A stretch of 64,000 nucleotides of DNA from Candidatus Levyibacteriota bacterium (GCA_029260905.1 JAJDCH010000011.1:512-64511), one strand, 5' to 3'; positions 18,077-44,373 are shown, numbered from the stretch's first letter. Translations and numbers: made by a program. Notes: generated by a model not told the origin, from the sequence alone.

Positions 18077-18077
18077 T

Positions 18078-19705: not shown

Positions 19706-19706
19706 A

Positions 19707-20789: not shown

Positions 20790-20806
20790 ATTTTATAAAT
20801 TAAAAA

Positions 20807-21487: not shown

Positions 21488-21490
21488 ATT

Positions 21491-26096: not shown

Positions 26097-26124
26097 AAAA
26101 AAACCTCCCTATTTATGGGAGGTT
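26097..26124 (-). terminator. Intrinsic terminator/attenuator hairpin directly 5' of the PfkB-aro operon ATG
   Basis: On the minus strand, CCTCCC-ataaata-GGGAGG (extendable to 8 bp) is followed by UUUUUUU and then ATG. Confidence 0.55.
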
Positions 26125-26160
26125 ATACTTTATAGCGCTTTAACACGCCAAACTACCTCC

Positions 26161-26211
26161 CTAGGAAGTAAAGTAAAACCAAATCTTGACTAGTTGCTGA
26201 ATATTTTTCAT
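26161..26211 (-). promoter_or_regulatory. Candidate 16-aa aromatic leader peptide (MKNIQQLVKIWFYFTS) of the aro operon
   Basis: ATG lies 12 nt downstream of the -10 (transcript may be near-leaderless). Codons run W-F-Y-F immediately before a UAG stop that abuts GGGAGGU, which is complementary to the 5' arm of the terminator. Confidence 0.45.
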
Positions 26212-26222
26212 ATGACTTTCAG

Positions 26223-26251
26223 ATTATAAACCTACCTGCCTCAAAAATCAA
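26223..26251 (-). promoter_or_regulatory. Sigma70-like promoter for the aro-trpS operon, internal to the trp-aro supercluster
   Basis: On the minus strand, TTGATT-17nt-TATAAT sits 9 nt downstream of the trpA stop. Confidence 0.5.
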
Positions 26252-26259
26252 GACTACGC

Positions 26260-27048: not shown

Positions 27049-27055
27049 ACAACTC

Positions 27056-28279
27056 CTAACTCCCTATTCCTAATTCACTGATATATTCTTTTAGGAACTC
27101 GTAAAACTTTTTATCATTAAATGCCTTTGCAAGTATAAACAAATCCTTGTCTCCTCTTCCAGATAAATTTACAACAATTACCTTTTCTTTACTAAGAGTT
27201 GGTGCCAATTTTAGTGCATAAGAAACAGCATGTGCTGATTCAAGCGCAGTAATTATTCCCTCGGTTTTTGATAAAACATCAACTGCCTCAACTGCCTCCA
27301 TATCAGTTACACTGACAAAACCAACTCTTTTTTTATCATGTAAAAGACTTAGCTCTGGACCAATGCCTGGATAATCAAGACCTGCTGAAATACTGTGAGT
27401 CTTTTGGAGTTGTCCATCGCTGTCTTGAAGAAAATAAGATTTATAACCTTCAACTACTCCAACACTGCCTGTTGGAAAACGCGTTGCATTATCACCTATT
27501 TTTTTTCCTCTTCCACCTGCCTCAACGCCGATAAGTTTTACTGATTTATCTTTTATAAAATTAGTAAAAGCACCCATCGCATTGCTTCCACCACCTACAC
27601 AGGCAACTACATAATCAGGCAGTAAGCCCTCTGTTTCCCTGAGTTGTTTTCTTATCTCACTCCCAACAATTGACTGAAAATCCCTATTCATTGTTGGAAA
27701 AGGATGCGGACCAACAACTGATCCAAGAAGATAATGCGTATCCTCCACATTCTCAATCCAGTCCTTAATCGCCGCATTTACTGCATCTTTTAATGTCTTA
27801 CTACCAAAACCAACAGGCGCCACTTTTGCGCCAAGTCTTTCCATCAAAAAAACATTTGGTCTTTGTCTTTTTATATCTTCTTCTCCCATATAAACTGTGC
27901 ATGCAAATCCAAGTTTTGCAGCAACTGTTGCAGTTGCCACCCCATGCTGACCTGCACCAGTTTCAGCAATAAGTCTTTTTTTACCAAGTCTTTTTGCGAT
28001 AAGTGCTTGTCCTAGACAATGAGTTATTTTATGCGCGCCTGTATGATTAAGTCCTTCATTTTTCAGATAAATCTTGGCACCCCCTAATTTTTCAGTCAGG
28101 TTTTTGGCAAAAATAAGAGGTGTCGGACGACCAGAGTAATTTTTCAAAAGATCTTCAAACTCCTTTTCAAATTTTTTATCCTTTTTTGCATCAATATACG
28201 CATTCTCCAACTCCTCAAGAGCTGGAATTAACATCTCCGGTACATACGCTCCTCCATATTTTCCAAAATGACTTTTCAT
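27056..28279 (-). CDS. trpB: Tryptophan synthase beta chain
   Basis: PLP lysine motif HTGAHKI and the GGGSNAMG segment. Confidence 0.9.
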
Positions 28280-28896
28280 AAATCTGCCCCCTTTGCATTT
28301 CTTATAAAACTTTTTATCTTTTTCAAGTCCTGTATCCCATCTGTTTCAACTCCCGATGCAACATCAACAATTTGTGGATATACTTTTTTTATAACATCTG
28401 CCACGTTTTCAGGACTGAGTCCTCCGGCTGATATCAGGGGAAACTCTTTTGCAAGTATCGCAACCTTTTCAAGATTTAACATAGGTCCTTCACTTTGCTT
28501 TATTCTATCAACCAGATAATACTCAACATCATACTTACTCATCTTAGCTCTAGCTTCTTCAAGATCAAAATTCCCCGGAAATCTGAAAGCTTTAATGACT
28601 TTTATCTTTATCTGATTTGTATATTCCGGTGTTTCATCGCCATGCAACTGTGCATAATCAAGATTGCAGTCTTTTATTATTTTCTGGACTATATCAAGAG
28701 GCATGTTTTGAAAAACACCAACCAGTTTTATTTTTCCTTTCATTTTTTTCCCTATTTCTATTGCAGTTCCCATATCAACTGTATGTGTTTTTATTAAGGG
28801 CATAAAAACCATTCCCAGAAATTCAGCCCCTTCAGAAGCTGCTAACTCCGCCACTTCAAGGCTTCTGGTTGCACATATTTTTACTTTTACATTCAT
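28276..28896 (-). CDS. trpF: Phosphoribosylanthranilate isomerase
   Basis: [10 protein letters not shown]...GMVF; 206 aa; position between trpC and trpB. Confidence 0.8.
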
Positions 28897-29702
28897 ATAT
28901 TTCTTAAACCATCAATAAACTCTCTTACATTTTCTGCCTGCATTAGACTTGTCCCAACCAACACCCCCGTTGCTCCAGCTTTTTTGTATTTCTCAACTTC
29001 ATGTTTGGAATTAATACCCGAGAATCCAAGTTTTATAAAATTGTTAGGAATTTTATTCAAGAGATTGCATGCATTGTCAACATTAATTTCAAATGTAGAT
29101 AAATCACGCGCGTTAACAGCAATAATTGACGTATTGGTAGAGAGCGCTTTTCTAAAATCCTCATCGCTTTGAATTTCAACAACTGGTTCAACGCCTAACC
29201 TCCGACAAAGATTTACATATTTATTTAGAACTTGTCCTTCAACGAGCCTTGCAATAAGTAAAATTGCATCCGAGCCAACACTTTTTGCTTCATAAATTTG
29301 ATACTCATCAATTACAAAGTCTTTTTGAAGAACAGGAAGTGTTGCCACTTTTAAAAGTTCAGGGATATCTGCTACTTCACCTTTAAAAAAACTTCTCTCA
29401 GTTATAAAACTAATCCCATCTGCTCCAGCCTCTTCATATTTTTTTGCTCTTTCAAGAAGACCAGATCTATCACTAAGAGTTGGATTTGAAGGTGATGCAA
29501 ATTTTATCTCGGCAATAAGCGCTATGCCACCCTTTTTAGGATTTTCTATTGCGACCTTGAATTTATCTGTCAGCTTAAACCTATCAAATCGGTTTATCAA
29601 TTCCCCAACCGATACATGCTTTTTCTTCTCCCTTATAACTTGTCTCGTATTCTCAACAATTTGAGACAAAATCTTATTTAAATTCTGCTTATTGCTAAAC
29701 AT
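28893..29702 (-). CDS. trpC: Indole-3-glycerol phosphate synthase
   Basis: IAEIKFASPS motif and the TIM-barrel fold. Confidence 0.85.
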   Translation of the reverse strand: MFSNKQNLNKILSQIVENTRQVIREKKKHVSVGELINRFDRFKLTDKFKVAIENPKKGGIALIAEIKFASPSNPTLSDRSGLLERAKKYEEAGADGISFITERSFFKGEVADIPELLKVATLPVLQKDFVIDEYQIYEAKSVGSDAILLIARLVEGQVLNKYVNLCRRLGVEPVVEIQSDEDFRKALSTNTSIIAVNARDLSTFEINVDNACNLLNKIPNNFIKLGFSGINSKHEVEKYKKAGATGVLVGTSLMQAENVREFIDGLRNI

Positions 29703-30705
29703 TTTGTGTCTCCTTTACTAAATCGCTAAGTATATTTTTTGCACTTCCACTATCAATTGATTCTTTAGCTAGTCTTATTCCATCTGAGATATTTCTTGCT
29801 TTTCCGGATACATACAGCGCAGCAGCGCTATTAAGAACTACGATATCCCGTCTTGGTCCTTTTACGCCATCTAAAACATCTGTTATGAATTTTGCATTTT
29901 CTGATAAATCCCCTTCAGCAATATCTGTTTTGGTAGACATTTCAAATCCAAAATCTTTTGGATCAATTTCAAAATTACTCATAACTCCTTTTTTAAATTC
30001 AAAAACATCAGTTTTACTAGATAAACTTATCTCATCCATTCCATCTCTACTTGCAACAATCAGCAGATGTTCATAGCCCAAACTTTTTGCTACTTTAATA
30101 AGTTTCTCTGCAATATCTTTACTTAGTACACCAATTATTTGTTTTTTAACAGTTGTTGGATTTAAAAAAGGTCCAAGAAAATTAAAAACAGTTCTTATTT
30201 TTAGGTCTTTTCTAACAACTACTACGTTTTTTGTCGCTGGATGAAAAAGCGGCGCAAAAAGAAAAACCATTTTTACTTTTTGCAAAACTTTTTTCGCTGC
30301 ATCTGCTGATAAGTTAATATTTACGCCCAGTTCCTCCAAAACATCAGCGCTTCCACACTTACTACTTGCTGCTCTATTACCATGCTTAGCAACCGGCACT
30401 CCTGCGCCTGCTACTACAAAAGCTACGGCAGTTGAAATGTTAAAACTTCCTGATTTGTCTCCCCCAGTTCCACAAACATCGATTGCGCCGTCAAACTCAA
30501 TCTTAACCATTTTTTCCTGCATGGCTTTTACAAGACTTGAAATCTCAGATACTGTCTCACCCTTTATCGAAAGCGCAGTCAGAATAGCACCAGCCTGCAC
30601 TGGTGTTATACTTCCGTCTATTACTCCTTCAAGAAAAAAATTTATCTCCCCGCCTGTAAGATCTTTTTTTTCTATTAACTTATTTAATATCAAAATTGCA
30701 TCCAT
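29695..30705 (-). CDS. trpD: Anthranilate phosphoribosyltransferase
   Basis: DVCGTGGDKSGSFNISTAVAFVVAGAGVPVAKHGNRA. Confidence 0.9.
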   Translation of the reverse strand: MDAILILNKLIEKKDLTGGEINFFLEGVIDGSITPVQAGAILTALSIKGETVSEISSLVKAMQEKMVKIEFDGAIDVCGTGGDKSGSFNISTAVAFVVAGAGVPVAKHGNRAASSKCGSADVLEELGVNINLSADAAKKVLQKVKMVFLFAPLFHPATKNVVVVRKDLKIRTVFNFLGPFLNPTTVKKQIIGVLSKDIAEKLIKVAKSLGYEHLLIVASRDGMDEISLSSKTDVFEFKKGVMSNFEIDPKDFGFEMSTKTDIAEGDLSENAKFITDVLDGVKGPRRDIVVLNSAAALYVSGKARNISDGIRLAKESIDSGSAKNILSDLVKETQNV

Positions 30706-30707
30706 AA

Positions 30708-31304
30708 TTATTTATTTAAAAAATTACTCAATATCTGCTTACCTGTTTCTGTTGCAAATGACTCTGGATGGAATTGAATCCCCTCAATCGGATATTCTTT
30801 GTGTCTTAATCCCATTATCTCACCTGTATCAATTGATGATGCACTAATCTTTAAACAATCAGGAAGAAATTTTTCATCTGCTATTAATGAGTGATATCGC
30901 ATCACATCTATACCTTGCGGGATGTTTTTAAAAACACCTTTTTCATCATGCTTTATACTACTTGTCTTGCCATGCATTGGCACTTTTGCTTTAACCACTT
31001 TTCCTCCAAAATAATAAGCAATTCCCTGCATCCCTAAGCACACTCCAAGAATAGGAATAGTTTTTCCAAGATTTATCAAAACCTCAGCGCAAACACCGAA
31101 ATAAGTTTGATCTGATGGATCTCCAGGTCCGGGTGATATTATTATTTTATCGTAATTACTATTTCTTATCTCATCCAAACTGATCTCATCATTTCTGAAA
31201 ACATCAAGGGTAAAATAACTACCTTTTGCTTTCAATACCTCGCCAACATACTGATAAAGGTTAAATGTAAATGAATCGTAATTATCAATTATCAAAACTT
31301 TCAT
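30708..31304 (-). CDS. trpG: Anthranilate synthase component II (glutamine amidotransferase)
   Basis: Class I GATase triad context (GVCLGMQ and HPES). Confidence 0.85.
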   Translation of the reverse strand: MKVLIIDNYDSFTFNLYQYVGEVLKAKGSYFTLDVFRNDEISLDEIRNSNYDKIIISPGPGDPSDQTYFGVCAEVLINLGKTIPILGVCLGMQGIAYYFGGKVVKAKVPMHGKTSSIKHDEKGVFKNIPQGIDVMRYHSLIADEKFLPDCLKISASSIDTGEIMGLRHKEYPIEGIQFHPESFATETGKQILSNFLNK

Positions 31305-31322
31305 AGTCTTACTTTTTAAACT

Positions 31323-32690
31323 TTACAAGCTCTCAATTGTTTCTTGTATTGCTTTCAATTTGTTTTCTATCTCTTTGTATTCTCTCTTTGCAATCGAGTC
31401 ATAAACAATGCCACTTGATGTCTGAGTATATGCATAATCTCCTGATACAAAAAGAGTCCGTATCGCAATTGCAAAAGTGCAATCTCCATTAAATCCAAAA
31501 TGTCCGATTCCCCCTCCATAGGGACCTCGCGCTCCAGCTTCCAACCGATCTATTATTTTCATAGCCTCTATTTTTGGCGCGCCAGTTAATGTACCTGCGG
31601 GAAAATTGGATGCAAGAGCCGAGAACATATCTTCATCTTTCTTGATAACACCTGTAATCTCGCTTGATATGTGCTGAACATGACTAAATTTTTTAACACT
31701 CATTAGATCCCGTATCTTAACACTGCCAAATTTTGCAACACGCCCTATGTCATTTCTATGCAGATCAACAAGCATATTATGCTCAGCCCTCTCCTTCTCA
31801 TCACTTAAAAGCTCTCTTGCCAATTTTTTATCTTCCATACCGTCTTTACCTCGTTTTATTGTTCCAGCAAGTGGACGTGTCACCATTTCTCCATCTCTTA
31901 AGGAAAATAAAAGCTCAGGACTTGAACCGATTATTTTTTTTTCTAGGAATTTTACGTAATACATAAATGGAGACGGGTTGCTTTTACGCAAATCTTCATA
32001 AACACTCAAAACATCTCCATTTATTTGATATTCTGACTTCATACCAACAACACATTGAAAAGTGTTACCTTTGCCAATCTCTTCTTTTATTTTTCCGACC
32101 ATCTCTTCATGTTTTTGCACATCAAGCGAATTTTTTATAAATTTTGCAGCTATTTTTTTCTCCTCAAGCTTTTCATCAATTATTTTTTTTATTTTTTCTG
32201 ACCGATCATAATCGTAATAAAAATAAAAAAGCTCATTTGTCTCTTTATCAAAAATAAGTCCGTCTGTATAAACCCCAAACATAAACTGATCAAATTTATC
32301 ATTTATCTTCAAATTCAGGGATGACTCAAAATAATTTGCTGCTTCATAACTTATGTATCCTATCAAACCACCTGCATATTCTCTGGTAATTGTCTGCTCT
32401 GGCATCATCTCTCTTAATGATTCGTAAGGATTGTCAACAGAGAAAATCTCATCATCAATTTTTAAGTTTTTATCTCGAGCAGAAATAATACGCTCAGGAT
32501 CAAAACCAATTATCGAATAGCGGGAAAACTTACCATCCTCACCGAGTGATTCAAAAATAAAACAAGTCTCATATGATTTTTCTATCTTCTGAAAAAGTTC
32601 ATAGAAATCCAAATCTTCAGCAATTTTTTTATAAACCGGTTTTTTTGATAATTTAATTTTTGGTAATTTTTTCATATTTATGAATATCAA
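31323..32690 (-). CDS. trpE: Anthranilate synthase component I
   Basis: Chorismate-binding blocks (LVDLHRNDIGRV and GAPKIEAMKII). Confidence 0.9.
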   Translation of the reverse strand: MIFINMKKLPKIKLSKKPVYKKIAEDLDFYELFQKIEKSYETCFIFESLGEDGKFSRYSIIGFDPERIISARDKNLKIDDEIFSVDNPYESLREMMPEQTITREYAGGLIGYISYEAANYFESSLNLKINDKFDQFMFGVYTDGLIFDKETNELFYFYYDYDRSEKIKKIIDEKLEEKKIAAKFIKNSLDVQKHEEMVGKIKEEIGKGNTFQCVVGMKSEYQINGDVLSVYEDLRKSNPSPFMYYVKFLEKKIIGSSPELLFSLRDGEMVTRPLAGTIKRGKDGMEDKKLARELLSDEKERAEHNMLVDLHRNDIGRVAKFGSVKIRDLMSVKKFSHVQHISSEITGVIKKDEDMFSALASNFPAGTLTGAPKIEAMKIIDRLEAGARGPYGGGIGHFGFNGDCTFAIAIRTLFVSGDYAYTQTSSGIVYDSIAKREYKEIENKLKAIQETIESL

Positions 32691-32699
32691 GGCTTGAAC

Positions 32700-32966
32700 T
32701 TATTTTATATAGTCAAATCTGCCTTTTTGAATTTCCTTTGATCCTCTTGTTACTGTCGCAACTCCAACCTTCAACCTTTTTGCAATCTTCTGATGCGGGA
32801 CACCACGCTTTAACATCTTTATGATTTGCAATCTATTTGGAATTTCATCTATCTCTTTCGAGCTTAAGATTCCAAATAAGAAATCTCGAAGCTCATCTTT
32901 ATCTTTCATCATAGAGATAGTATCTATCAACTCATTAAGATGTTTTCTATTATCTTTCATATCCAT
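32700..32966 (-). CDS. TrpR-like DNA-binding protein, YerC/YecD family
   Basis: 88 aa. IAKRLKVGVATVTRGSKEIQKG matches the Trp_repressor/YerC HTH. It lies 9 nt upstream of trpE. Confidence 0.6.
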   Translation of the reverse strand: MDMKDNRKHLNELIDTISMMKDKDELRDFLFGILSSKEIDEIPNRLQIIKMLKRGVPHQKIAKRLKVGVATVTRGSKEIQKGRFDYIK

Positions 32967-32968
32967 TC

Positions 32969-32997
32969 ATTATACTAGTATACTGATATACAGTCAA
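32969..32997 (-). promoter_or_regulatory. Sigma70 consensus promoter with an embedded ACTAGT-centred palindrome (candidate TrpR-type operator) for the trpR-like-trpEGDCFBA transcript
   Basis: On the minus strand, TTGACT-17nt-TATAAT. The perfect palindrome TATACTAGTATA (32971-32982) lies between -35 and -10 and resembles the E. coli trp operator core GTACTAGT. Confidence 0.55.
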
Positions 32998-33004
32998 GTG
33001 GTAT

Positions 33005-35887: not shown

Positions 35888-36388
35888 TTATTCACCGGCT
35901 TTTCTGATTGCTTCAAGATCAAGCTTTTTCATTGGCATGAATACAGCGGTTACCGCCTCAGCTTTTTCAGGATCGCGCATCATTTCATCCAGAATCCTTG
36001 GGACTATCTGCCATGTGACACCAAATTTGTCTGTACACCATCCACATTGTTCAGCTTCGGGAACAGCTGAAAGTTTTTCCCAGAAGAAATCAATTTCTTC
36101 TTGTGTCTCACACTCCACAATATAAGATGTTCCGCCGTTAAGTTTGAACTGGTCCATAGGGCCTCCATTAAGAGCCATGAAACTTATTCCATCAAGCTCG
36201 CACTCAGCTGTCAGAACGGACCCCTCTGGTCTACCTGAAACTTCCTCAGATGCCTTGGGGGATTTTGTAATATCTCCAAGTTTTGCGCTGTGATCACCTG
36301 GTGCCGCATTGAAAGTATCTATGTAGTAATTTACTGCCTCTTCACCATTGTTGTTAGCAAACCAGATACATGTAATTAGTTTACTCAT
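35888..36388 (-). CDS. PhnB-like VOC-superfamily protein (3-demethylubiquinone-9 3-methyltransferase-domain family)
   Basis: ITCIWFANNNGEEAVNYY and the C-terminal CGWCTDKFGVTWQIVP. Paralogous to the tandem protein at 49316. Confidence 0.6.
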   Translation of the reverse strand: MSKLITCIWFANNNGEEAVNYYIDTFNAAPGDHSAKLGDITKSPKASEEVSGRPEGSVLTAECELDGISFMALNGGPMDQFKLNGGTSYIVECETQEEIDFFWEKLSAVPEAEQCGWCTDKFGVTWQIVPRILDEMMRDPEKAEAVTAVFMPMKKLDLEAIRKAGE

Positions 36389-36567
36389 TTAATATATTTT
36401 AACACATTGTAAGAACCTATTTTGTATTAGTTTTGTAAGCATATCCCTTGTTTGTGCTGCTCTCCGTAGTTGACATGTTTAAGAACCGAGAAATAGAGTT
36501 TGGCTTTACTTTACAAAATATACAGACTGTTTTTGAAGCTCTAAATATAACCCTTGGAAATGACTTA

Positions 36568-37485
36568 TCAGTTTAGCTCAAAGAAATCCTCGTCCAATTC
36601 TTTGACTTCAAAATTAGACTTAATTTGAACACCTACATTAAATTTAATCATTAAATCGACTAGCTTATTTCCATCGATAAGGATGAGAGTATGATTTCGA
36701 TCGCTAGTAGCTTTGGCAACTGCTGCAGGATCGAACATAGATGTAGTAACAAATATTCCTTTCCGAACATCTCCACTCATTGCTCCTATAAAATTTCTAA
36801 TTTCTGGTTCTCGTACTTTATTCCCATCTTTATATCTTTTAGCTTGAATGTATATTTTTTCTATTCCTAATTGATCTTGATTGATAATACCATCAATACC
36901 CCCATCCCCTGATTTTGGTGTAGATTCAAAATCTCCATAGCCCATTTTTTGGAATAACAGTAAAACAATTTTTTGGAAATAATAAGGATCTACTGAATAC
37001 AGCTTTTCCTGAAGCTCGGCCTCAAGTTTTTCTAATAATTCTTGTACACCCGTTTCAATTAAGTCTTGAGGTGTGTACTTGCTTGTCAGTGGATCACTTT
37101 GATTACTCTTCCTTTTTCTAGGTTCATGAGCTATATAGTCTGGGTCTTGTTTTAAATCATCTAAGGATAGTTCCGTTACTCCTGATTCTAAAAACCGTTT
37201 ACCTTTATCACTAATTTTGACTAAACCTCTGCTTGGTTGATCTACATATTTTCCTACTTTTAGATATGTCTTACCCCAAGCCACCCTGTCGTGGAAAAGG
37301 CTACCACCTGTTGCTTTTGTCTGAGCCAATTCATCTGGTGTCAAATTAAAATACTTAGCGTCTAGAAGCAAAGTCGGTAGATCTGAGGTATTAACTATTC
37401 GATCATCGGCCAGCACTTTTAGTATAGGTAAAAAGGTTTCGTAAAACTTTGGTAATGCCATAAAACATCTAATTTCTATTTGCAT
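36568..37485 (-). CDS. mrr: Mrr-type restriction endonuclease (Mrr_N winged helix plus Mrr_cat)
   Basis: N-terminal Mrr_N-like region, then the catalytic core (GIDGII, YIQAKRYKDGNKV, GIFVTTSMF). Confidence 0.75.
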   Translation of the reverse strand: MQIEIRCFMALPKFYETFLPILKVLADDRIVNTSDLPTLLLDAKYFNLTPDELAQTKATGGSLFHDRVAWGKTYLKVGKYVDQPSRGLVKISDKGKRFLESGVTELSLDDLKQDPDYIAHEPRKRKSNQSDPLTSKYTPQDLIETGVQELLEKLEAELQEKLYSVDPYYFQKIVLLLFQKMGYGDFESTPKSGDGGIDGIINQDQLGIEKIYIQAKRYKDGNKVREPEIRNFIGAMSGDVRKGIFVTTSMFDPAAVAKATSDRNHTLILIDGNKLVDLMIKFNVGVQIKSNFEVKELDEDFFELN

Positions 37486-37546
37486 TATACATGAATGTTA
37501 AACAATGTTAAAATAGGCTAGAAATAGTTTAAAAATGTAATGAAAT

Positions 37547-38308
37547 ATGCAAAATAATAAAGATGATCTGGGGCTGGTAATATCTGAACTAAATCAATAT
37601 CTACATGTGGGATATACCCTAAAACTAACTTATTTAAAGAAACATGATGTAGACGGACAGAAAGAAGCATTCGATGTTGACGAGTTAAAGAAAGAATATA
37701 ACGAAAAGATAAATATTTGGTTTAAAGAAATAGCAGACCACTTACAGAAGCTAGACTTTCAATACCTCTTTCATTTTGTTCAACCAAAAGACGATGCTAT
37801 GTCTTACTCTCATCCTCTTGGTAATCTTACTCACGCTTTAGAAAAACACCTCTTTGCTTTAGAAGATGTTATTGTTCGTCTTGAGGAAAGAAAGAATTTA
37901 GCAGTAAGACAAGAGATAGCTGATAAAGAATACCAAGTGGACACTCTTTATAAGATTACTTACAGTGAACATTTAAGAGAAATAAAGCTCAACAACATTG
38001 TATTAGCTAACCTCCAATCTGACTCTAAGAATGTTAATTTTTTTGAGTATGTATTCTCAAATCCCAATATACCCTTAGCAGTAAGCGACATTGAGGAAGC
38101 TACAGCAATGCCCTTAGCTTCTAACATTCAGGATATTCTGCGTGATTTAGGCTTCAAGGGAAACATAAGAAAAGTATTCTTCCCTATAGCTACGAAAGCA
38201 AAAGTAATGTTCATGAACCCAATTTCAAAGCAGTATGCTATTAAAAATGATCTCCCGATAATTAAATTGCTAAAAGACAACGAGATAGAACGAGAAGCAA
38301 CGAACTAG
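37547..38308 (+). CDS. Hypothetical protein, no recognisable domain (first gene of the plus-strand operon of the element)
   Basis: 253 aa. Divergent from mrr across a 61-nt intergenic region. Coiled-coil-rich. Confidence 0.4.
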   Translation: MQNNKDDLGLVISELNQYLHVGYTLKLTYLKKHDVDGQKEAFDVDELKKEYNEKINIWFKEIADHLQKLDFQYLFHFVQPKDDAMSYSHPLGNLTHALEKHLFALEDVIVRLEERKNLAVRQEIADKEYQVDTLYKITYSEHLREIKLNNIVLANLQSDSKNVNFFEYVFSNPNIPLAVSDIEEATAMPLASNIQDILRDLGFKGNIRKVFFPIATKAKVMFMNPISKQYAIKNDLPIIKLLKDNEIEREATN

Positions 38309-38472
38309 AACGGGAAGTTGCCACCCACAACCGTAAAAGCCATTTCTCCCTCCATATTTCTCCTATTCTGTTTGCGTGGATATAAATACGCAAGCTATTC
38401 AAAATAATCTGAATGAGCCACCCTCTAATGATGAGGAATTGGATAGGATTTCTCAATTTTTTTTACTTCTAA

Positions 38473-38802
38473 TTGAAATTGATAAAAAGCAAAAACAGAA
38501 AGGTAAAACAGATGAAAATAAGTGAAATACAAATTATTCCTATCAAACCTCAAAACGGATTAGTTGCCTTTGTCAGCTTCGTATTGGAAGAAAATCTGTA
38601 TCTAGGTTCAATCGGTATTCTCACAAAACCCGAAGGAGGATATAGGCTCGTTTATCCCACTAAAAAAGTAGGAGTGCGAAGCATGAATATATTCCATCCA
38701 ATAAATAAAGATTTCTCTCAATCTATAGAAAAGGAGGTCATCAGTAAATTTGAAGATGTAATGAAAAAATATGATAGATACGATAAAGCTGACATTAGAT
38801 AA
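38473..38802 (+). CDS. SpoVG-like nucleic-acid-binding protein
   Basis: IQIIPIKPQNGLVAFVSFVLEENLYLGSIGILTKPEGGYRLVYPTKK...MNIFHPINKDFSQSIEKEVISKF parallels SpoVG. The true start may be the internal M at about 38515. Confidence 0.5.
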   Translation: MKLIKSKNRKVKQMKISEIQIIPIKPQNGLVAFVSFVLEENLYLGSIGILTKPEGGYRLVYPTKKVGVRSMNIFHPINKDFSQSIEKEVISKFEDVMKKYDRYDKADIR

Positions 38803-39910
38803 AAGTATGGTTTCTATATTGAACAAAGACTTATTCCAGAAAGAAACTCAAAATGCCTCAAGGGGCTACTTTACTCTTGTGCAAAATCCAACAAAAGCTG
38901 AATTAAGGAACGGAATTTATAAGCCAAGATTAACCCTAACCAAAAGATTTAATACTTCGGGTAGATCTGAGTTGACCTTGTCTGTGGAACTCTCACTGCC
39001 AAAATTACTTTATGGAAACAACTTTGATGAGGTAAATGATGATGACTTTCCGATTGTCATAGACAAACTTAGTAATGTACTAAAAACAATGGGTGTAAGG
39101 GTGTTTAAGGAAATTCTCACATCAGCTCCTGTATCAGCTGTGCACTATTCAAAAAATATTCCCCTTACCGATGGCTCTACTCCTCATTACTTAATAAAGA
39201 AGATCAAAGAAGCAAACATTTCCTTAGCTCTTGATGTAAATCAAACTGATTACCGCAATGACGGACACAGTTATAAGTGGCACAGCAACTCTTACGAGGT
39301 GGCTTTTTATGACAAGATTAAAGATCTCGAAATGGCTGTCAAAAGCGATAAAAGATCTATAGAAAAAGATAATCGTTTACAACTCCACCTTTTCAACCAA
39401 ATAACTAAAAAACAAAAAACAGAAGTCTTACGGATGGAAGTAAGACTCAATAATAGACAAAAATTGAAGCAATTATTTAAGACTCTTAATATTGATAGTG
39501 AGCTCATTTTTAAGAGCTTGTTCAGTAAAGATATTTCTCAGTGCATACTCCTGCACTACTTAAGCGAAATAGAAAAACAGCGACCAAAGATACTAGACTA
39601 TTCCCCTTCCAACCCAACTTCTCTTCTAGCTGAAATTATTATCAGTAATCCCAATCTTGGAGCACAGAAAGTATTGCAGCTATTTGGATTAAAACAAGCT
39701 CTTGATACTATTCCTCCTCGTGAATTAAGAGTTATGCTTGGTAAATCTAGCAATAGAAGTTGGTACAGGTTAATCTCACAAACCAAAAACGTTGCACTCC
39801 CCAGTGTTAATAGCCCTTTTGAAGCTATAAGAAAAAACTTGATGGACTTTGAACTAGTAAAACTAGTTGATTTACAAGTCAAAATGTTAAATAATGATAA
39901 ATATAACTAA
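38771..39910 (+). CDS. Putative rolling-circle replication initiator (Rep_trans-like)
   Basis: YEVAFYDKIKDL and EVLRMEVRLNNRQKLK resemble the Rep_trans blocks FIRIYNK and LWRVEIELKR. The N-terminal IDTIKLTLD resembles the IDWLSFTF start. The start overlaps the SpoVG-like gene by 32 nt. Confidence 0.4.
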   Translation: MIDTIKLTLDKSMVSILNKDLFQKETQNASRGYFTLVQNPTKAELRNGIYKPRLTLTKRFNTSGRSELTLSVELSLPKLLYGNNFDEVNDDDFPIVIDKLSNVLKTMGVRVFKEILTSAPVSAVHYSKNIPLTDGSTPHYLIKKIKEANISLALDVNQTDYRNDGHSYKWHSNSYEVAFYDKIKDLEMAVKSDKRSIEKDNRLQLHLFNQITKKQKTEVLRMEVRLNNRQKLKQLFKTLNIDSELIFKSLFSKDISQCILLHYLSEIEKQRPKILDYSPSNPTSLLAEIIISNPNLGAQKVLQLFGLKQALDTIPPRELRVMLGKSSNRSWYRLISQTKNVALPSVNSPFEAIRKNLMDFELVKLVDLQVKMLNNDKYN

Positions 39911-40085
39911 TATGCCAGATGAGCAATATCACTCCATAGAAGAAGTCGCAAAGTTATTAAATGTGGCTTACTTAACGGTTTATCGTTGGGTAAAAAGTGG
40001 AAAGCTTCACGCTATTAAAGCTGGAAAGCAGTATCGAATAAATAAGGATGATCTAAATTCCTTTACTAGGATTAACAAAAAATAA
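39894..40085 (+). CDS. Excisionase/MerR-type HTH DNA-binding protein (Xis/AlpA-like)
   Basis: IEEVAKLLNVAYLTVYRWVKSGKLHAIKAGKQYRI. Confidence 0.7.
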   Translation: MINITNMPDEQYHSIEEVAKLLNVAYLTVYRWVKSGKLHAIKAGKQYRINKDDLNSFTRINKK

Positions 40086-40086
40086 C

Positions 40087-41907
40087 ATGGCAAACGAAAG
40101 AAAAACAGAAAACATCGTTAGAGAACATTTTAATCGATACAAAGAGCAATTAATTATTGAGGAGCAGTCTTCCGATGTTCCTAAGATAGATAAGTTGCTG
40201 CGACTTGCTTCAAAAAAAGGGAATGGTAAAGGATTCCCAGAGTTTATTATCAGATTTAAGAACAACCCCGATCTAATAATCGTAATAGAATGTAAAGCTG
40301 ACTTCCTAAAACACGAAAGCGAAAATAGAGATAGATATAGTGAATACGCTGTAGATGGTGTCTTACTTTATGCATCATATTTAGCAAAAGAATTTGACGT
40401 TTTAGCAATAGCGGTAAGCGGTGAATCCTTAAACCAATTAAAAGTGTCCCATTTCCTTCAACTGAAAAGTGATAACAAACCAACTCAAAAATTTGGAGTA
40501 CAACTACTTCCTGCAAATGATTACCTTGAGGGATATATCAAGAGTCCTGAGAAATTTCGTCAGGATTACGAAAAGTTACTCACCTTTTCTAAGGAACTAA
40601 ACGAGAAATTGCATGGCTATAAAATTTTAGAAAGTGATAGAAGCCTATTAATTAGCTGTATATTAATTGCACTTGAAAATACTGCATTTATTAAAACTTA
40701 CAAGGATTACTCAAGGGCTGAGGACTTAGCAAGATATCTAGTTGATACGGTAGAGATGGAGTTCAAAAACTCCAATATTCAAGATAAAAAACTCTCAATC
40801 GTTAAGGCTCGGTTTGAATTTATTAAAACTGATACTTCTCTTTCAACAGTTGATGGTGTTCTAAAAGAAATAATTACAGATATTAATGACAACATCAATT
40901 CATTTGTTAGGACTCATAGATACTTCGACGTATTGGGTCAGCTTTACGTTGAGTTTCTAAGATATGCAAACAGTGATAAAGGTCTAGGTATCGTACTTAC
41001 CCCTCCTCATATAACCGAATTTATGGCTGAACTCGCAGAGGTAAATAGAAGCAGCGTTGTATATGACAACTGTACAGGCACTGGAGGATTTCTTGTAAGT
41101 GCAATGAATTTAATGATTAAAGACGCCAAAGACGATTTAGACTTAATTAAAAACATAAAACAACATCAACTGATTGGCGTTGAGTATCAAGCTCACATTT
41201 TTGCTCTTGCTTGTTCAAATATGTTTATTCATCAAGACGGTAAGTCAAGCATACTTAATGGAAGTTGTTTTGACAAAACAATAATTGAACAAGTTAAGGC
41301 TTATAAACCAACAGTTGGTTTATTAAACCCTCCTTACAAAGCAGATAAGAAGAATGACGTTGAAGAACTAGAGTTCATAGTTAATAACTTGGAATGTTTA
41401 GAACAAGGTGGTCGATGTGTTGCAATCGTGCCTATGTCATCGGCATTAGCACAGAAAGGGAAAATTTTACAACTAAAGAAAAAGCTATTGGATAATCATA
41501 CTTTAGAAGCAGTACTCTCCATGCCAGACGAGCTTTTCTTTAACTCGAATGTGGGTGTTATCTCTTGTATTATGGTCTTTACAGCAAAAAGACCTCACCC
41601 ATCTAATAAGAAAACTTTTTTCGGTTATTTCAAAGATGACGGGTTTGAAAAGAGAAAAATGAAGGGAAGAATTGATATTAAAGGTAAATGGAAGTCAATT
41701 AAAGATAGTTGGATTGAAGCATATGTGAATAGGCAAGATATTGCAGGTTCAAGCGTCAATCAAGCAGTTAGAGCCGAAGATGAATGGTGTGCAGAAGCCT
41801 ATATGGAAACTGATTACACTGTTTTAACTAAGAAAGATTTTATTAAATCGGTAAAGGAATTTGTTTATTTTAAAGAGCTATTTACTTATGAAACTAAAGA
41901 AAATTAA
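40087..41907 (+). CDS. BcgI-like type IIB restriction-modification A subunit (N-terminal PD-ExK nuclease fused to a gamma-class N6-adenine methyltransferase)
   Basis: PEFIIRFKNNPDLIIVIECK (PD...ExK), methyltransferase motif I GTGGFLVSA, and motif IV LLNPPYK. Size and paired S-subunit match BcgI. Confidence 0.65.
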   Translation: MANERKTENIVREHFNRYKEQLIIEEQSSDVPKIDKLLRLASKKGNGKGFPEFIIRFKNNPDLIIVIECKADFLKHESENRDRYSEYAVDGVLLYASYLAKEFDVLAIAVSGESLNQLKVSHFLQLKSDNKPTQKFGVQLLPANDYLEGYIKSPEKFRQDYEKLLTFSKELNEKLHGYKILESDRSLLISCILIALENTAFIKTYKDYSRAEDLARYLVDTVEMEFKNSNIQDKKLSIVKARFEFIKTDTSLSTVDGVLKEIITDINDNINSFVRTHRYFDVLGQLYVEFLRYANSDKGLGIVLTPPHITEFMAELAEVNRSSVVYDNCTGTGGFLVSAMNLMIKDAKDDLDLIKNIKQHQLIGVEYQAHIFALACSNMFIHQDGKSSILNGSCFDKTIIEQVKAYKPTVGLLNPPYKADKKNDVEELEFIVNNLECLEQGGRCVAIVPMSSALAQKGKILQLKKKLLDNHTLEAVLSMPDELFFNSNVGVISCIMVFTAKRPHPSNKKTFFGYFKDDGFEKRKMKGRIDIKGKWKSIKDSWIEAYVNRQDIAGSSVNQAVRAEDEWCAEAYMETDYTVLTKKDFIKSVKEFVYFKELFTYETKEN

Positions 41908-42850
41908 CGAGTTATTTGATATTCAATATGGCAATAGTCTTGAGCTAGTAAATCTAACTGAGTGTGAGGCTGAAGATTTACACTCAGTAAACTTTGTGTC
42001 AAGAACTGAAAAGAATAACGGTGTTTCTGGAATAGTTGAGCAGCTACCTGACCTTGAACCTTTCGAGGCTGGACTCATTACAGTTGCTGGGAGTGGAAAC
42101 TCGGTTTTATCATCATTTATCCAAACTAAGCCATTCTATACAGGATTTCATGTATTTATTCTTCGTCCTCTATCTCCTATGTCTATGATAGATAAACTTT
42201 TCTACTGCTATACCATCAGATTAAATCAATATAAATATAGTTTTGGTCGTCAAGCGAATAAGACATTAAAAGATTTGTTAATTCCAAGCGAAGTACCCGA
42301 TGATTGGAAGAAGCTGGACATTAATAGTTTGAATAATCTCAACAACCAGAGCTTTGATCACAATGATATTAACCTAAATTCTTCTAACTGGGAGTATTTT
42401 AATTTAACGGACTTATTTGAAATTTCAGCTTCAAGAGATGAGTTAATAAATGATCTGAACCTTGGAGGCACAACGCCTTATATAACTTCATCAGACAAAA
42501 TGAATGGAATAACTTCAACAGTTGAAGACGAACCAACAAATCCCGCTGGAACGATAACTGCTAATCGAGGCGGCTCCGTAGGATATTTTTATTACCAACC
42601 CTTCCCTTATAAATCAACTCCAGTTGACGTAAGAATATTAACACCTAAGTTTCAAATAAATGTATATATTGGTTTATTTCTTAAAACCATACTTCAGTTA
42701 GAAAAATACAGATTTAATTACAGTAGGAAGATGGGTAGTGATCGACTAGCTGAATTTAGAATAAAATTACCAACCGAAAACGGTCAACCAAGCTGGTCAT
42801 TTATGGAACAATATATTAAGAGCTTGCCCTATTCAAGTAATTTAAACTAA
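41888..42850 (+). CDS. Restriction-modification specificity subunit (HsdS/BcgIB-like, two TRD-like halves)
   Basis: Start is placed at the ATG at 41888, overlapping the A-subunit stop by 20 nt. Two repeated TRD-like halves. Confidence 0.5.
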   Translation: MKLKKINELFDIQYGNSLELVNLTECEAEDLHSVNFVSRTEKNNGVSGIVEQLPDLEPFEAGLITVAGSGNSVLSSFIQTKPFYTGFHVFILRPLSPMSMIDKLFYCYTIRLNQYKYSFGRQANKTLKDLLIPSEVPDDWKKLDINSLNNLNNQSFDHNDINLNSSNWEYFNLTDLFEISASRDELINDLNLGGTTPYITSSDKMNGITSTVEDEPTNPAGTITANRGGSVGYFYYQPFPYKSTPVDVRILTPKFQINVYIGLFLKTILQLEKYRFNYSRKMGSDRLAEFRIKLPTENGQPSWSFMEQYIKSLPYSSNLN

Positions 42851-42852
42851 AT

Positions 42853-44334
42853 ATGAAAGCTATCGTAATCGCACGAGTTAGTACAGAAGAACAAAAAGAG
42901 GCTGGTAACTCCCTACCCGCACAAATTGCTAGGCAGAAGAAGTACTTTCAGAGTAAAGGATACCTGATAGAAAAAGAGTTTAGCTTTGATGAAAGTGCCT
43001 ACAAGAATAAAAGAGATGATTTTGACAATATATTGGACTATGTCCTTTCCCAGAAGGAAAAAATCGCAGTAGGATTTGATAAGGTTGATAGGCTATCCCG
43101 TAACATCTTTGATAAGCGTGTTTCTTTTCTTTACGAAAAGGCATTAAGAGATGAGATTGAAATACATTTTGTATCTGATGGTCAGGTTATAACAAGCCAT
43201 TTATCTGCAGTTGAAAAGTTTAATTTTAGTATAAGTCTTGGTCTAGCAAAGTATTATTCTGACGCCATAAGCGATAATGTTAAGCGTGCTCAAGAACAAA
43301 TGCTACGAAATGGGATCTATCCTAGCCGTCCCTCTTTTGGATATAAACGAGCTCCAATAACTAAAGATAAAACAGAAATTGTAGTTGATGAATATGCTTC
43401 TGTAATAGTAAGAAAAGCATATGAGCTTTATGCGACAGGTAGTTTTTCATTGGATTTGTTACGAAAAAAACTCAAAGAAGACTACGGAGTTAATTGGTCG
43501 CATGGCTGGACTGATAAAATTCTAAAAGATCACTTCTACTACGGTGTAATGACTTGGAATAAAAAGCAGTATAACCATAGGTATACTCCTATTATCACAA
43601 AAGCATTATTTGACCAAGTACAACAAATTAAGGCGGGTTTTAATAAGAAACGCTTCAAATATGCTGGATTGCCTTATGTTTTTCGTGGCTTATTACGCTG
43701 TGGGCATTGTGGGCTGTCTATTACACCAGAAAAGCAGAAAGGACATGTCTACTACCATTGTACGCAGTATAACGGCAAACACGGAGCAGAATGGCTACGA
43801 GAAGAAGAAATTACTAATCAGATAGGAAGGGTATTTAAGAATCTACAGTTGCCAGAAGATACATTAAGGAAAGTCGTTGAAACATTAAACTCTACTCATC
43901 AAAACAAAATGGACTTTCAAAATAAGCAGTTTGATAAATTAACCAAAGAAAGGACTGTAACAACCAATATGATTGATAATCTTTATCTTGATAAGTTAAA
44001 GGGGCGTATTACTGATGATGAGTATGACAGGTTTTATCAGTCATTCCGTGAACAATTAAGTGATATAGATACTCGGTTGGCATTACTTCAAGAAGCAGAA
44101 GATAACTACTACATTACGGCTAAATACATATTGGATTTGGCAAATCGGGCGTATGATCTGTTTGTAAGTTCTGAACTTGAAGAAAAACGGCAGTTAATCA
44201 AACTTGTACTTAAGAACCTTAAATTAGAGGGAAAAACTGTTCAATTTGAGGCTGTTAAACCCTTTGATACACTACTATCGTATCAAGATTATCTACCTAT
44301 GCTCCCCCGCGAGGATTCGAACCTCGGACCTTGA
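42853..44334 (+). CDS. Large serine recombinase (resolvase catalytic domain, recombinase domain, zinc ribbon)
   Basis: AIVIARVSTEEQKEAGNSLPAQ contains the catalytic Ser motif. Recombinase domain and CGHCG...YYHC zinc ribbon follow. The last 33 nt overlap the tRNA-Asn 3' half. Confidence 0.85.
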   Translation: MKAIVIARVSTEEQKEAGNSLPAQIARQKKYFQSKGYLIEKEFSFDESAYKNKRDDFDNILDYVLSQKEKIAVGFDKVDRLSRNIFDKRVSFLYEKALRDEIEIHFVSDGQVITSHLSAVEKFNFSISLGLAKYYSDAISDNVKRAQEQMLRNGIYPSRPSFGYKRAPITKDKTEIVVDEYASVIVRKAYELYATGSFSLDLLRKKLKEDYGVNWSHGWTDKILKDHFYYGVMTWNKKQYNHRYTPIITKALFDQVQQIKAGFNKKRFKYAGLPYVFRGLLRCGHCGLSITPEKQKGHVYYHCTQYNGKHGAEWLREEEITNQIGRVFKNLQLPEDTLRKVVETLNSTHQNKMDFQNKQFDKLTKERTVTTNMIDNLYLDKLKGRITDDEYDRFYQSFREQLSDIDTRLALLQEAEDNYYITAKYILDLANRAYDLFVSSELEEKRQLIKLVLKNLKLEGKTVQFEAVKPFDTLLSYQDYLPMLPREDSNLGP

Positions 44335-44373
44335 AGTTAACAGCTTCCTGCTCTACCGCTGAGCTACAGGGGA
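44302..44373 (-). tRNA. tRNA-Asn (anticodon GUU)
   Basis: Folded by hand. Acceptor stem UCCCCUG/CGGGGGA, D-arm GCUC-AGCGGUA-GAGC, anticodon loop CUGUUAA, variable loop AGGUC, T-arm CGAGG-UUCGAAU-CCUCG, discriminator G, no encoded CCA. Confidence 0.8.

Follow-up and report, generated by a model that had tools for sequence, protein, structure and literature searches.

The locus raises the question of where a mobile element that runs into a tRNA gene begins and ends, and how much of the tRNA it supplies. We analysed a 64,000-nucleotide stretch of a Candidatus Levyibacteriota genome (GCA_029260905.1, JAJDCH010000011.1:512-64511), hereafter the window, in which ARAGORN finds a single tRNA, tRNA-Asn(GTT), entered from its antisense side by the ORF of a large serine recombinase. 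A preliminary description made from the sequence had proposed an element extending from 36400 to 44373 that brings its own 3' half of the tRNA (33 nt). Our main reading, to which we give a probability of about 85%, is that positions 36463-44304 are an integrative element of 7,842 bp (~7.8 kb), inserted by a large serine integrase at the 3' tip of tRNA-Asn, with attP inside the integrase ORF. All ORFs lie where they had been described, with starts that overlap or abut, and the features used below are these:

36459-36462, attL core GCTC, with host DNA on its left and the P' arm of the element on its right
36463-36576, plus strand, P' arm and the 37 C-terminal codons detached from the recombinase (SVVDMFKNREIEFGFTLQNIQTVFEALNITLGNDLSV, ending in a stop), located by tblastn
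36568-37485, minus strand, left-hand cargo, a methyl-directed (type IV) restriction endonuclease of the Mrr type
37547-38308, plus strand, 253-aa protein, present in some relatives
38376-38525, plus strand, conserved short ORF (49 aa) that starts ahead of the SpoVG-like gene and runs into it
38473-38802, plus strand, SpoVG-like protein, backbone (PF04026, E=2.9e-10, 40.6 bits)
38771-39910, plus strand, 379-aa backbone protein, candidate rolling-circle initiator (gene II/Cri-like)
39894-40085, plus strand, excisionase-family HTH protein (HTH_17), backbone (PF12728, E=1.4e-14; TIGR01764, E=2.7e-16)
40087-41907, plus strand, right-hand cargo, A subunit of the restriction-modification system (nuclease region at the N-terminus, fused to an HsdM-like N6-adenine methyltransferase)
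41861-42850, plus strand, HsdS-like specificity subunit (PF01420, two stretches)
42853-44334, plus strand, large serine recombinase, integrated form of 493 aa (PF00239, PF07508, PF13408)
44301-44304, attR core GCTC, equal to tRNA nt 74-71 in antisense
44301-44373, minus strand, host tRNA-Asn(GTT), called by ARAGORN, acceptor stem checked by hand

Both ends of the element could be placed, and the view that a mobile element has integrated at tRNA-Asn through a large serine recombinase is supported. attL reads ...ttgtttgtgCT GCTC tccgtagttgacatgtttaagaac and attR reads ...tatctacctAT GCTC ccccgcgaggattcgaacc; they are identical over the five nucleotides TGCTC (36458-36462 and 44300-44304), and the short left-hand repeat of the crossover core that the preliminary description had suggested looking for is thus present. 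Its left end at 36400 was roughly right, but the junction lies ~60 nt away, at the core 36459-36462, and its right end at 44373 has to be given up, as the element stops at 44304. Homology of the host flank with the related locus L091 stops at 36444 and resumes at 36458 as element sequence. The block of identity between attL and attR measures 5 nt in the window and 5-11 nt in 24 related loci, with a shared stretch of 4-10 nt whose tRNA-side limit falls at tRNA nt 71-66; the block takes in register positions 3-5 (tRNA nt 74-72) in 24 of 25 related loci. The core differs with the target tRNA (GCTC for Asn, TGGCGG for Asp, TGGCGT for Glu, TGGTGT for Arg and TGGCTG for Gln), and at each locus examined the core preceding the tail matches that locus's own tRNA-terminal core. 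The att sites are therefore short, with few bases in common and no long direct repeats, in the manner of serine integrases. Comparison places the crossover within GCTC (tRNA nt 74-71), which comprises the first trailer/CCA position, the discriminator base and the uppermost part of the acceptor stem. In our main reading the integrase inserted the 7.8-kb element there, at the outermost 3' end of the host's tRNA-Asn. The predicted attP junction of this element is ...GATTATCTACCTATGCTCTCCGTAGTTGACATG... and the predicted attB junction ...CCCTTGTTTGTGCTGCTCCCCCGCGAGGATTCG....

The recombinase ORF does end inside tRNA-Asn, as had been noticed: past the right core it continues for 30 nt through the host tRNA in antisense, and its stop codon (44332-44334) lies 34 nt into the gene. 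Codons 1-484 come from the element, and the last 9 sense codons and the stop are antisense tRNA-Asn, so that the terminal 11 residues, MLPREDSNLGP, are the antisense of the acceptor and T arm. The antisense tRNA 3' end falls on exactly the same recombinase codon in 50 of the 79 related genome loci that formed our comparison set; the overlap is not due to chance. Because the shared att block is confined to the tip of the tRNA, the tRNA body is host DNA. The tRNA is intact, and at most its last 3-4 nt and the 3' trailer derive from the element.

The recombinase has a resolvase-type catalytic domain (PF00239, E=1.3e-15), a recombinase domain (PF07508, E=6e-11) and a zinc ribbon (PF13408, E=5e-8), and it matches PHROG 95, "integrase" (E=3.5e-65). 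R8, S10, D76, D79, R80 and R83 are invariant among 25 homologues, and this only recombinase in the element is of the serine, not the tyrosine, type. The 37-codon segment at the left end is its natural C-terminus: after circularisation in silico it is in frame with codon 484, its ORF is intact in the window, and in ~45 related loci tblastn finds the same peptide ahead of the recombinase gene and in the same orientation. Its entropy by codon position (1.15/0.77/1.40) has the pattern of a coding segment. The tail is conserved, conservation being the sole sign of a role in the protein. Reading frames that run unbroken through integrase, core and tail occur in L005, L009, L084, L089 and L090; most such uninterrupted junctions lie in large contigs and resemble tandem arrays more than free circles. 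attP therefore lies within the integrase ORF, and integration partitions the gene. With attP in the 3' end of the gene, integration cuts off the last 37 codons and leaves them at the far left end, and ~10 antisense-tRNA codons are then read in their place; the tRNA stays whole. The excised circle would restore the reconstructed free form of 521 aa.

Among the remaining backbone genes, SpoVG-like and Xis-type identities had been proposed for two, and both proved correct: the first passes the PF04026 cut-off of 29.6 bits, and the second matches the excisionase families listed above. The SpoVG-like gene was detected in ~30 related loci, where it immediately precedes the 379-aa gene; nearly all of these loci are of the tRNA-Asn type. 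L083 and L084 have called genes of 44-54 aa at the site that corresponds to the 49-aa ORF. The HTH_17 gene is kept after the 379-aa gene in most tRNA-Asn-type loci, and its product would serve as a candidate directionality factor or regulator. The 253-aa protein, which the preliminary description called unknown, fell into no family when compared with Pfam, NCBIfam, PHROGs, PADLOC and PDB sequences; it has homologues in L080 (87%), L068 (47%) and L007, L010, L015 and L017 (30-39%).

The 379-aa protein had been called Rep_trans-like, an assignment we do not retain. Rep_trans (PF02486) gave nothing against the window protein even at E<=10 and matched one of 80 diverse family members (E=0.026); hhalign of the family profile against pT181 RepC returned a probability of 0.2%; and the window protein had no significant match in Pfam, PDB sequences or PDB folds (Foldseek). 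Its family, 1,251 clusters at 50% identity with invariant Y180-D-K and R221-x-E223, leads instead to Phage_CRI/G2P, the gene II replication initiators of filamentous phages: 11 of the 80 members match PF05144 (Phage_CRI) at E<=1, and two, P0494 (28.3 bits, residues 1-221) and P0509 (22.5 bits), exceed its gathering cut-off of 21.7 bits. In a viral structure library, the two top fold matches (E ~1e-8) go to unnamed viral proteins that are about as long. We regard the protein as a candidate gene II/Cri-like initiator, assigned transitively through diverged family members, and the earlier suggestion of a rolling-circle initiator remains plausible through this link. As a nickase, for which the tyrosine of the invariant Y180-D-K would suit as catalytic residue, it would replicate the excised circle by the rolling-circle mode; no replication origin was identified for the element.

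Two restriction systems make up the recognised cargo. Mrr lies between attL and the backbone, hence inside the element as previously held, at a position occupied by other genes in L091 and L001. It matches PF04471 (E=1e-33) and PF14338 (E=5e-18), covering both the winged helix and Mrr_cat, and PADLOC mREase_IV over its full length (E=2.3e-56). The A subunit matches PADLOC REase_MTase_IIG (PDLC03608, E=1.7e-162) over positions 26-609 of 614, has PF02384 at residues 281-590 and a visible PD...ECK motif at about residues 61-70, and its methyltransferase domain resembles type I M subunits in PDB. The specificity subunit, which has two target-recognition regions, matches PADLOC Specificity_II (E=5.5e-38). 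Both subunits recur in L008, at 92% (A) and 85% (specificity) amino acid identity. Together they form what is by its genes a restriction-modification pair with BcgI-like two-subunit architecture, in agreement with the preliminary description. This payload is consistent with the cargo of the relatives, which varies and consists mostly of restriction-modification and toxin-antitoxin genes, and the label "defense-island-like" is in that sense apt.

The elements at the 79 related loci, 5-11 kb in size, have four backbone genes in common, for the SpoVG-like protein, the 379-aa protein, an excisionase-type HTH protein and the serine integrase, and the recombinase adjoins, in one and the same register, the 3' end of a tRNA gene (Asn, Asp, Glu, Arg or Gln). 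Their hosts, Patescibacteria, Dependentiae, Gamma- and Alphaproteobacteria and Pedobacter, belong to several phyla, and the contigs reach 1.4 Mb. Recombinase homologues number more than 2,000 (57-92% identity), and integrases of different phyla are 57-80% identical. In L091 and L001, two relatives of the host, the same tRNA-Asn is occupied by other variants whose cargo differs; nucleotide identity between L091 and the window is ~70% for rpoD and dnaG and 83% for dmu. Two copies in a single MAG are 99.7% identical, occupy separate sites and part right after TGGCATG. Free and integrated forms can be matched in two sets, L084 (attP form) with L068 (attL, attR), and L009 with L004. L084 is a 6,948-bp contig without a tRNA, and one ORF stays in frame across both its ends; this would fit a circle, judged solely from that continuity, and the assembler's "l" suffix is read as linear. 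No paper describing this element family was found in the literature library searched.

Three other explanations of the locus deserve consideration. The reading in the preliminary description, a crossover deep in the tRNA (anticodon/T-arm) whereby the element's 33-nt 3' half replaces that of the host in the manner of classical tRNA-targeting islands, draws on the 34 nt of tRNA covered by the recombinase ORF, on the many homologues that end in antisense-tRNA peptides, and on a tRNA 3' half joined to foreign sequence in L004, L007, L008 and L011 that resembled attP. These last junctions turned out to be intron-bearing tRNA-Asn genes; the intron belongs to group I (Rfam RF00028, 53-90 bits). We consider a deep crossover very improbable: attL and attR share only TGCTC in the window, leaving room for 3-4 terminal nt at most, and across loci the common stretch of 4-10 nt ends at tRNA nt 71-66; the near-identical copies in one MAG diverge right after TGGCATG; the tRNA-derived residues follow the host tRNA while the element sequence is unchanged; and the displaced 3' half is absent from the entire window with up to 3 mismatches allowed, in keeping with the earlier remark that no second copy was seen.

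A tip insertion could also be a dead one, namely a decayed, immobile island whose integrase lost its C-terminus on insertion and which is kept for its restriction genes. The integrase is indeed truncated relative to the free form, remnant arrays are common at these tRNAs (L014, L089, L090; the 379-aa gene is fragmented in L040), and we found neither an empty tRNA-Asn site in close relatives nor a proven circular form of this particular element. Decay is nevertheless unlikely, given that the window's backbone ORFs are without exception intact and closely spaced, the integrase keeps its three domains and catalytic residues, the detached tail ORF is intact, most integrated relatives have full-length ORFs, and near-identical intragenomic copies and cargo turnover between related hosts speak for recent activity of the family. 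Alternatively, the element could be a satellite or stripped-down relative of an inovirus, with single-stranded circles made by the gene II/Cri-like protein and packaged by a helper, integration being the resting state. TLC and RS1 of Vibrio cholerae are satellites packaged by a helper inovirus. The small size of the elements, the link of the 379-aa family to Phage_CRI, named for such replication proteins, and the viral fold matches all suit this idea, and inoviruses, some with serine recombinases, have been reported in the Candidate Phyla Radiation (PMC6813254). However, the window has no pI/Zot-type morphogenesis ATPase or coat-like gene, none is among the top 25 families listed (144 cargo clusters, 33 relatives), and IMG/VR holds no member of the recombinase family, which makes a satellite decidedly unlikely.

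We thus return to a serine-integrase element aimed at tRNA tips that carries attP inside its own integrase gene; the kind is known and the form is a variant. The family appears to use the acceptor/T-arm end of Asn, Asp, Glu, Arg and Gln tRNA genes and to leave the tRNA intact, and the distribution of its members suggests that it functions over very wide host distances (Patescibacteria, Dependentiae, Proteobacteria, Bacteroidota). The recognised half-site would be the conserved acceptor/T arm, and its conservation would enable the same type of element to enter very different phyla; to our knowledge, tRNA acceptor/T-arm ends exist in essentially every bacterium. A tentative extension, which we regard as possible but rather doubtful, is that the position of attP forms a built-in state switch, the 521-aa and 493-aa forms differing in stability or recombination direction, coupled with near-universal recognition of the tRNA half-site that allows phyla to be crossed. 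If true, this would be an integration-dependent control not described for serine integrases, and the split gene offers a directly testable hypothesis on how recombination direction is controlled. Serine integrases are widely used in genome engineering, as short sites suffice for them and host factors can be dispensed with, and each requires its own landing site to be installed first; if the wide host range holds, this family would be a candidate tool for organisms now without a genetic system. As a carrier of restriction-modification and toxin-antitoxin genes the family is also very abundant (>2,000 integrase clusters, ~1,250 replication-protein clusters), and its hosts include many symbiotic or ultra-small bacteria, about whose mobile elements little is known.

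Among known systems, the BcgI-like type IIB enzymes resemble the cargo pair in having an A subunit of ~600 aa (PD...ExK-like nuclease plus HsdM-like part) and an HsdS-like B subunit of ~330 aa; their defining trait is a behaviour, cutting on both sides of the site, and the pair described here is BcgI-like by its genes. Diverged members of the 379-aa family pass the Phage_CRI threshold over the N-terminal 220 residues, and the Y-D-K and R-x-E motifs resemble "RIYNK ... WRVEIELK" of pT181 RepC, but unlike the phage and plasmid initiators the 379-aa protein sits in an integrative element beside a SpoVG-like gene. The large serine integrases (phiC31, Bxb1, A118/LI integrase, TnpX, CcrAB of SCCmec) have the same three domains, a resolvase domain with the serine nucleophile, a recombinase domain and a zinc ribbon with embedded coiled coil. 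Such integrases exchange strands at a 2-bp crossover, join attP and attB without host factors and require a directionality factor for excision. The element likewise has short att sites with few common crossover bases and probably needs a separate small protein for excision, and, as SCCmec does at rlmH, it enters a conserved housekeeping gene at its 3' end. It differs from them in four respects: it is aimed at the last nucleotides of tRNA genes; its attP is part of the integrase ORF, and integration therefore swaps the C-terminus of the enzyme; the outer half of attB, which is the tRNA trailer, shows no conservation from host to host; and the host range crosses phyla.

In a survey of genomic islands, tRNA-gene sites were used overwhelmingly by tyrosine integrases (PMC10484663). 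Classical islands of that kind combine a tyrosine integrase with a direct repeat of ~15-50 bp of the tRNA 3' end, and the element has neither. Similar in layout are the "suicidal" integrases of the SSV type from archaeal viruses and plasmids (PMC7253208, PMC8371274), which also target tRNA genes and have attP in the integrase ORF, with a gene split by integration and restored by excision; the SSV integrase gene is disrupted into two parts (PMC7253208). That enzyme is a tyrosine integrase of archaeal hosts, whereas ours has serine recombinase domains only and bacterial hosts, and it loses only ~37 C-terminal residues, all known domains staying in one ORF. Mycobacteriophages such as BPs offer a further parallel, since there too integration alters the C-terminus of a protein, the prophage and free-genome proteins differ, and the removed tail is a degradation tag. 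Immunity in BPs is integration-dependent, with attP in the 3' part of the regulatory gene (PMC4557955). The split gene of BPs is the repressor and its integrase a tyrosine enzyme, whereas in the element described here the split gene is the serine integrase itself.

The recombinase, a large serine integrase, lies at the right end of the following features (window coordinates):

36568-37485, minus strand: Mrr (PF04471/PF14338; PADLOC mREase_IV)
37547-38308, plus strand: 253-aa open reading frame (ORF), no family match
38473-38802, plus strand: SpoVG-like gene (PF04026)
38771-39910, plus strand: 379-aa ORF, no family match of its own
39894-40085, plus strand: excisionase-type HTH gene (63 aa; HTH_17; TIGR01764)
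40087-41907, plus strand: nuclease-methyltransferase fusion (PADLOC REase_MTase_IIG, E=1.7e-162)
41861-42850, plus strand: HsdS-like subunit (PADLOC Specificity_II)
42853-44334, plus strand: large serine recombinase (Resolvase, Recombinase and Zn ribbon)
44301-44373, minus strand: tRNA-Asn(GTT), the sole tRNA in the window

The recombinase ORF overlaps tRNA-Asn by 34 nt, stop codon included, and the last 11 residues of the protein, MLPREDSNLGP, are the acceptor stem and T arm read antisense. With this protein as query, over 2,000 homologues were found (62-92% identity), many with C-termini (WLPREDSNLEP, WCARLDSNQRPTD, WRPQGDSNP) that are likewise antisense tRNA 3' ends, the W (TGG) standing in for CCA. 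Scanning one genome per species yielded 313 loci, 79 of which were fetched; their hosts are Patescibacteria, Dependentiae/Babeliales, uncultured Gamma- and Alphaproteobacteria, and one Pedobacter. Some of these loci sit on contigs 0.5-1.4 Mb long, which rules out a binning artefact in the host assignment. By script, ARAGORN placed an antisense tRNA beginning at the same recombinase codon in 53 loci (offset 0 in 50/53; Asn 16, Arg 11, Asp 12, Glu 9, Gln 5). A tRNA-Gln or tRNA-Glu overlaps the recombinase end at 6 further loci where the script missed the codon, and 6 more have an intron-containing tRNA-Asn. The window has ATG at 44299-44301, where most relatives have TGG, both Trp codon and encoded CCA; the reconstructed native tRNA trailer (GAGCAG) also lacks CCA, and the window element may be adapted to a host not encoding CCA.

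The left junction was located by homology. Host homology, seen in two related genomes, runs through a VOC gene (35888-36388, minus strand) and ends at about 36444; over this gene L001 is ~80% identical to the window in nucleotide sequence and L091 83%, the latter also sharing rpoD and dnaG (~70%). Homology restarts at 36458 with a block of 80-97 nt that opens with TGCTC and, in the recombinase frame, reads SVVDMFKNREIEFGFTLQNIQTVFEALNITLGNDLSV and then a stop. This detached C-terminal tail, with consensus LPLVD(M/A)F(K/R)NREIEFGFSLQNIQTVFETF, is encoded upstream of the recombinase gene, and on its strand, in ~45 loci, and its entropy by codon position (1.15/0.77/1.40) marks it as coding sequence. 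Where examined, it comes immediately after a core matching the tip of that locus's own tRNA (Asn GCTC, Asp TGGCGG, Glu TGGCGT, Arg TGGTGT, Gln TGGCTG). Three loci (L005, L089, L090) have the tail joined in frame to a recombinase 3' end, and a second tail type is common to the candidate free-form contig L084 and to attL of an integrated relative, L068. In L009, an uninterrupted 526-aa ORF departs from the tRNA register directly after TGGCTC, and the following 130 nt recur ~10 kb upstream of the L004 recombinase, after TGCTC and unrelated DNA. These two loci thus provide attP, attL and attR of one element type, with the crossover in GCTC.

The VOC gene adjoins the element in L001 and L091 too. 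Its product, a VOC / 3-demethylubiquinone-9 3-methyltransferase-family protein, is 81-91% identical to the best 120 of 721 matching protein clusters, some from unrelated MAGs, a conservation unusually high for a small enzyme. Further left in the window (18000-33000) is a run of ~17 co-oriented minus-strand ORFs.

To refine the crossover, attL and attR were compared in a common register in 25 loci. The identity block covers positions 3-5 of the hexamer T1 G2 G3 C4 T5 C6 in 24/25 loci, and position 6 also in 23; in the window the two sites share TGCTC. Taken together, these blocks leave GCTC (36459-36462 and 44301-44304) as the only consistent crossover interval. The core corresponds to tRNA nt 74 (the first CCA or trailer base), 73 (discriminator), 72 and 71, so the tRNA body overlapped by the ORF is host DNA. 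The comparison places the element's share of the tRNA at the last 3-4 nt at most, plus the 3' trailer (in many relatives the encoded CCA is also element-supplied), and puts the element at 36463-44304, 7,842 bp with Mrr included. The preliminary description, whose ORF list agrees with our map, stands in outline, while its proposals on the part of the tRNA supplied by the element (the 3' end) and on the right end of the element (44304, not 44373) are overturned by the attL/attR comparison. The integrase has 521 aa in its reconstructed free form versus 493 aa when integrated, the predicted attP junction being CAAGATTATCTACCTATGCTCTCCGTAGTTGACATGTTTAAG and the predicted attB junction ATCCCTTGTTTGTGCTGCTCCCCCGCGAGGATTCGAACC.

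The element arm at attL (36463-36490, consensus CCCYTRGTAGACATGTTCAGGAAC) carries a TTC..GGAAC motif similar to the T-loop of the tRNA (TTCGAACC) in the host arm (44305-44330), yet offset outward from the core by a few bases. In serine integrase sites, the motif for the zinc-ribbon domain lies ~5 bp further out in attP than in attB, and the outward shift of the T-loop-like motif agrees with this spacing.

Six loci have a tRNA 3' half followed by conserved foreign sequence from the anticodon loop onward, an apparent attP with a tRNA half that would have suited the idea of an element-supplied tRNA 3' half. In four of them (L004, L007, L008, L011) this reading was ruled out, the structure being a tRNA-Asn with a group I intron (Rfam RF00028, 53-90 bits). 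The introns lie in the anticodon loop of the tRNA-Asn adjoining the element (L004:11495-11697, L007:11478-11692, L008:4998-5193, L011:11496-11723, all minus strand), and the tRNA-Asn genes of L017 and L075 have the same intron-like appearance. Hosts of the intron-bearing loci are labelled Patescibacteria and uncultured Gammaproteobacteria/Pseudomonadales. Homologues of only 486 aa (L080-L082) were likewise rejected as free forms: they are integrated, their ORF stopping in the tRNA T-stem. A tblastn search of the window with 18 tails for alternative tail types gave nothing significant.

Evidence of mobility comes from related hosts in which the same tRNA-Asn is occupied by other variants carrying other cargo, from near-identical copies, from the tandem arrays and remnants that accumulate at tRNAs targeted by the family, and from spread across phyla. 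One MAG holds two 5.8-kb copies that are 99.7% identical (L040:2722-8502, L044:1-5776), one adjoining tRNA-Arg and the other a degenerate tRNA-like sequence (TGGCATGTCATGTTGCTCTCGAACC) that is possibly a secondary site. In three loci, elements are arrayed in tandem or nested at a single tRNA: L005, where a distant serine recombinase (1329-2909, 35% identity) reads in frame into the next element's tail; L014, with a recombinase 3' remnant bearing another tail type (818-1039); and L009, with a 107-nt direct repeat (3450-3556 and 11447-11553, 98% identical, 7,997 bp apart) that begins exactly at the core and that simple serine-integrase insertion leaves unexplained. An empty tRNA-Asn site was not found in a close relative. 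Exact look-ups of the flanking response regulator, VOC protein and HxlR and of the integrase returned no record; VOC protein homologues are extremely widespread, and both contexts fetched (2/2) were non-syntenic with the window. For the free circular form, IMG/VR gave distant recombinases only, and a metagenome scan for the integrase-core-tail pattern gave only two decayed remnants. The 6,948-bp contig L084 has no tRNA, an intact 522-aa integrase and an ORF that continues in frame across the contig ends, making it a candidate circle, the only such contig found.

The backbone in relatives consists, in order, of a 45-55-aa ORF, the SpoVG-like gene, the 379-aa protein, the HTH gene, a variable region and the integrase, with a second variable region between attL and the backbone. 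Most of the 79 loci have the 379-aa gene together with the integrase; the SpoVG-like and HTH genes turned up chiefly in tRNA-Asn-type loci. In the window, an unannotated 49-aa ORF (38376-38525, plus strand; containing NDEELDRISQFFLLLIEIDKKQKQKGK) overlaps the SpoVG-like gene start; the true start of that gene is probably the ATG at 38512. The position of the 49-aa ORF is kept in relatives (44-54-aa genes are called there in L083 and L084). An alignment of the region upstream of the SpoVG-like gene, made in search of a replication origin, brought out this conserved ORF and no conserved hairpin.

Non-backbone ORFs in 33 delimited relatives number 174 and form 144 clusters. Most are restriction-modification (RM) enzymes (types I, II, IIG and III), alongside toxin-antitoxin pairs (Gp49/HI1420, Fic, SocA), SoFic, an aminoglycoside-phosphotransferase-family gene and ankyrin proteins. 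The top family lists for these clusters contain no phage structural genes. The window RM pair recurs in L008 (92% and 85% aa identity) within a different backbone variant. Within the window element, methyl-directed Mrr (36568-37485) accompanies an N6-adenine-methylating RM system (40087-42850). The two must be compatible: sites modified by the methylase must escape Mrr cutting.

The 379-aa protein has no direct match in Pfam, NCBIfam, PHROGs or PADLOC. Its profile matched no PDB sequence, its AlphaFold model (pLDDT 78) had no PDB neighbour by Foldseek, and tblastn against plasmids was negative. A full HMM search put the family at 1,251 clusters (50% identity), with Y180-D-K and R221-x-E223 invariant. 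When 80 diverse members were compared with Pfam, 11 matched Phage_CRI (gene II protein N-terminal domain), 2 of them above the curated threshold. Judged through these diverged relatives, the protein is probably a gene II/Cri-type initiator of rolling-circle replication. The Rep_trans-like initiator proposed earlier is not borne out, with a single match among the 80 (E=0.026) and a negative hhalign comparison against pT181 RepC.

The recombinase is one of the ordinary large serine integrases. Two of its features are unusual for that family: here the target is a tRNA tip, and attP lies inside the integrase ORF. tRNA tips are used overwhelmingly by tyrosine integrases (genomic island survey, PMC10484663). 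A literature search on tRNA-targeting serine integrases of CPR or Dependentiae, in a library covering part of the journals, turned up no description of this family, though an earlier one may exist. The element suggests a testable regulatory hypothesis, a switch in which the 521-aa and 493-aa forms of the integrase would differ in direction of recombination or in stability, and the element may also find use in genome engineering. Its nearest logical parallels are tyrosine recombinase systems. SSV-type 'suicidal' integrases have their own gene split on insertion into a tRNA gene (PMC7253208), as here, although those enzymes are tyrosine and this one serine. In mycobacteriophages with integration-dependent immunity, attP lies in the repressor gene and integration alters the protein's C-terminus (PMC4557955); the C-terminus is altered in both systems, but there the split gene encodes the repressor and here the integrase.
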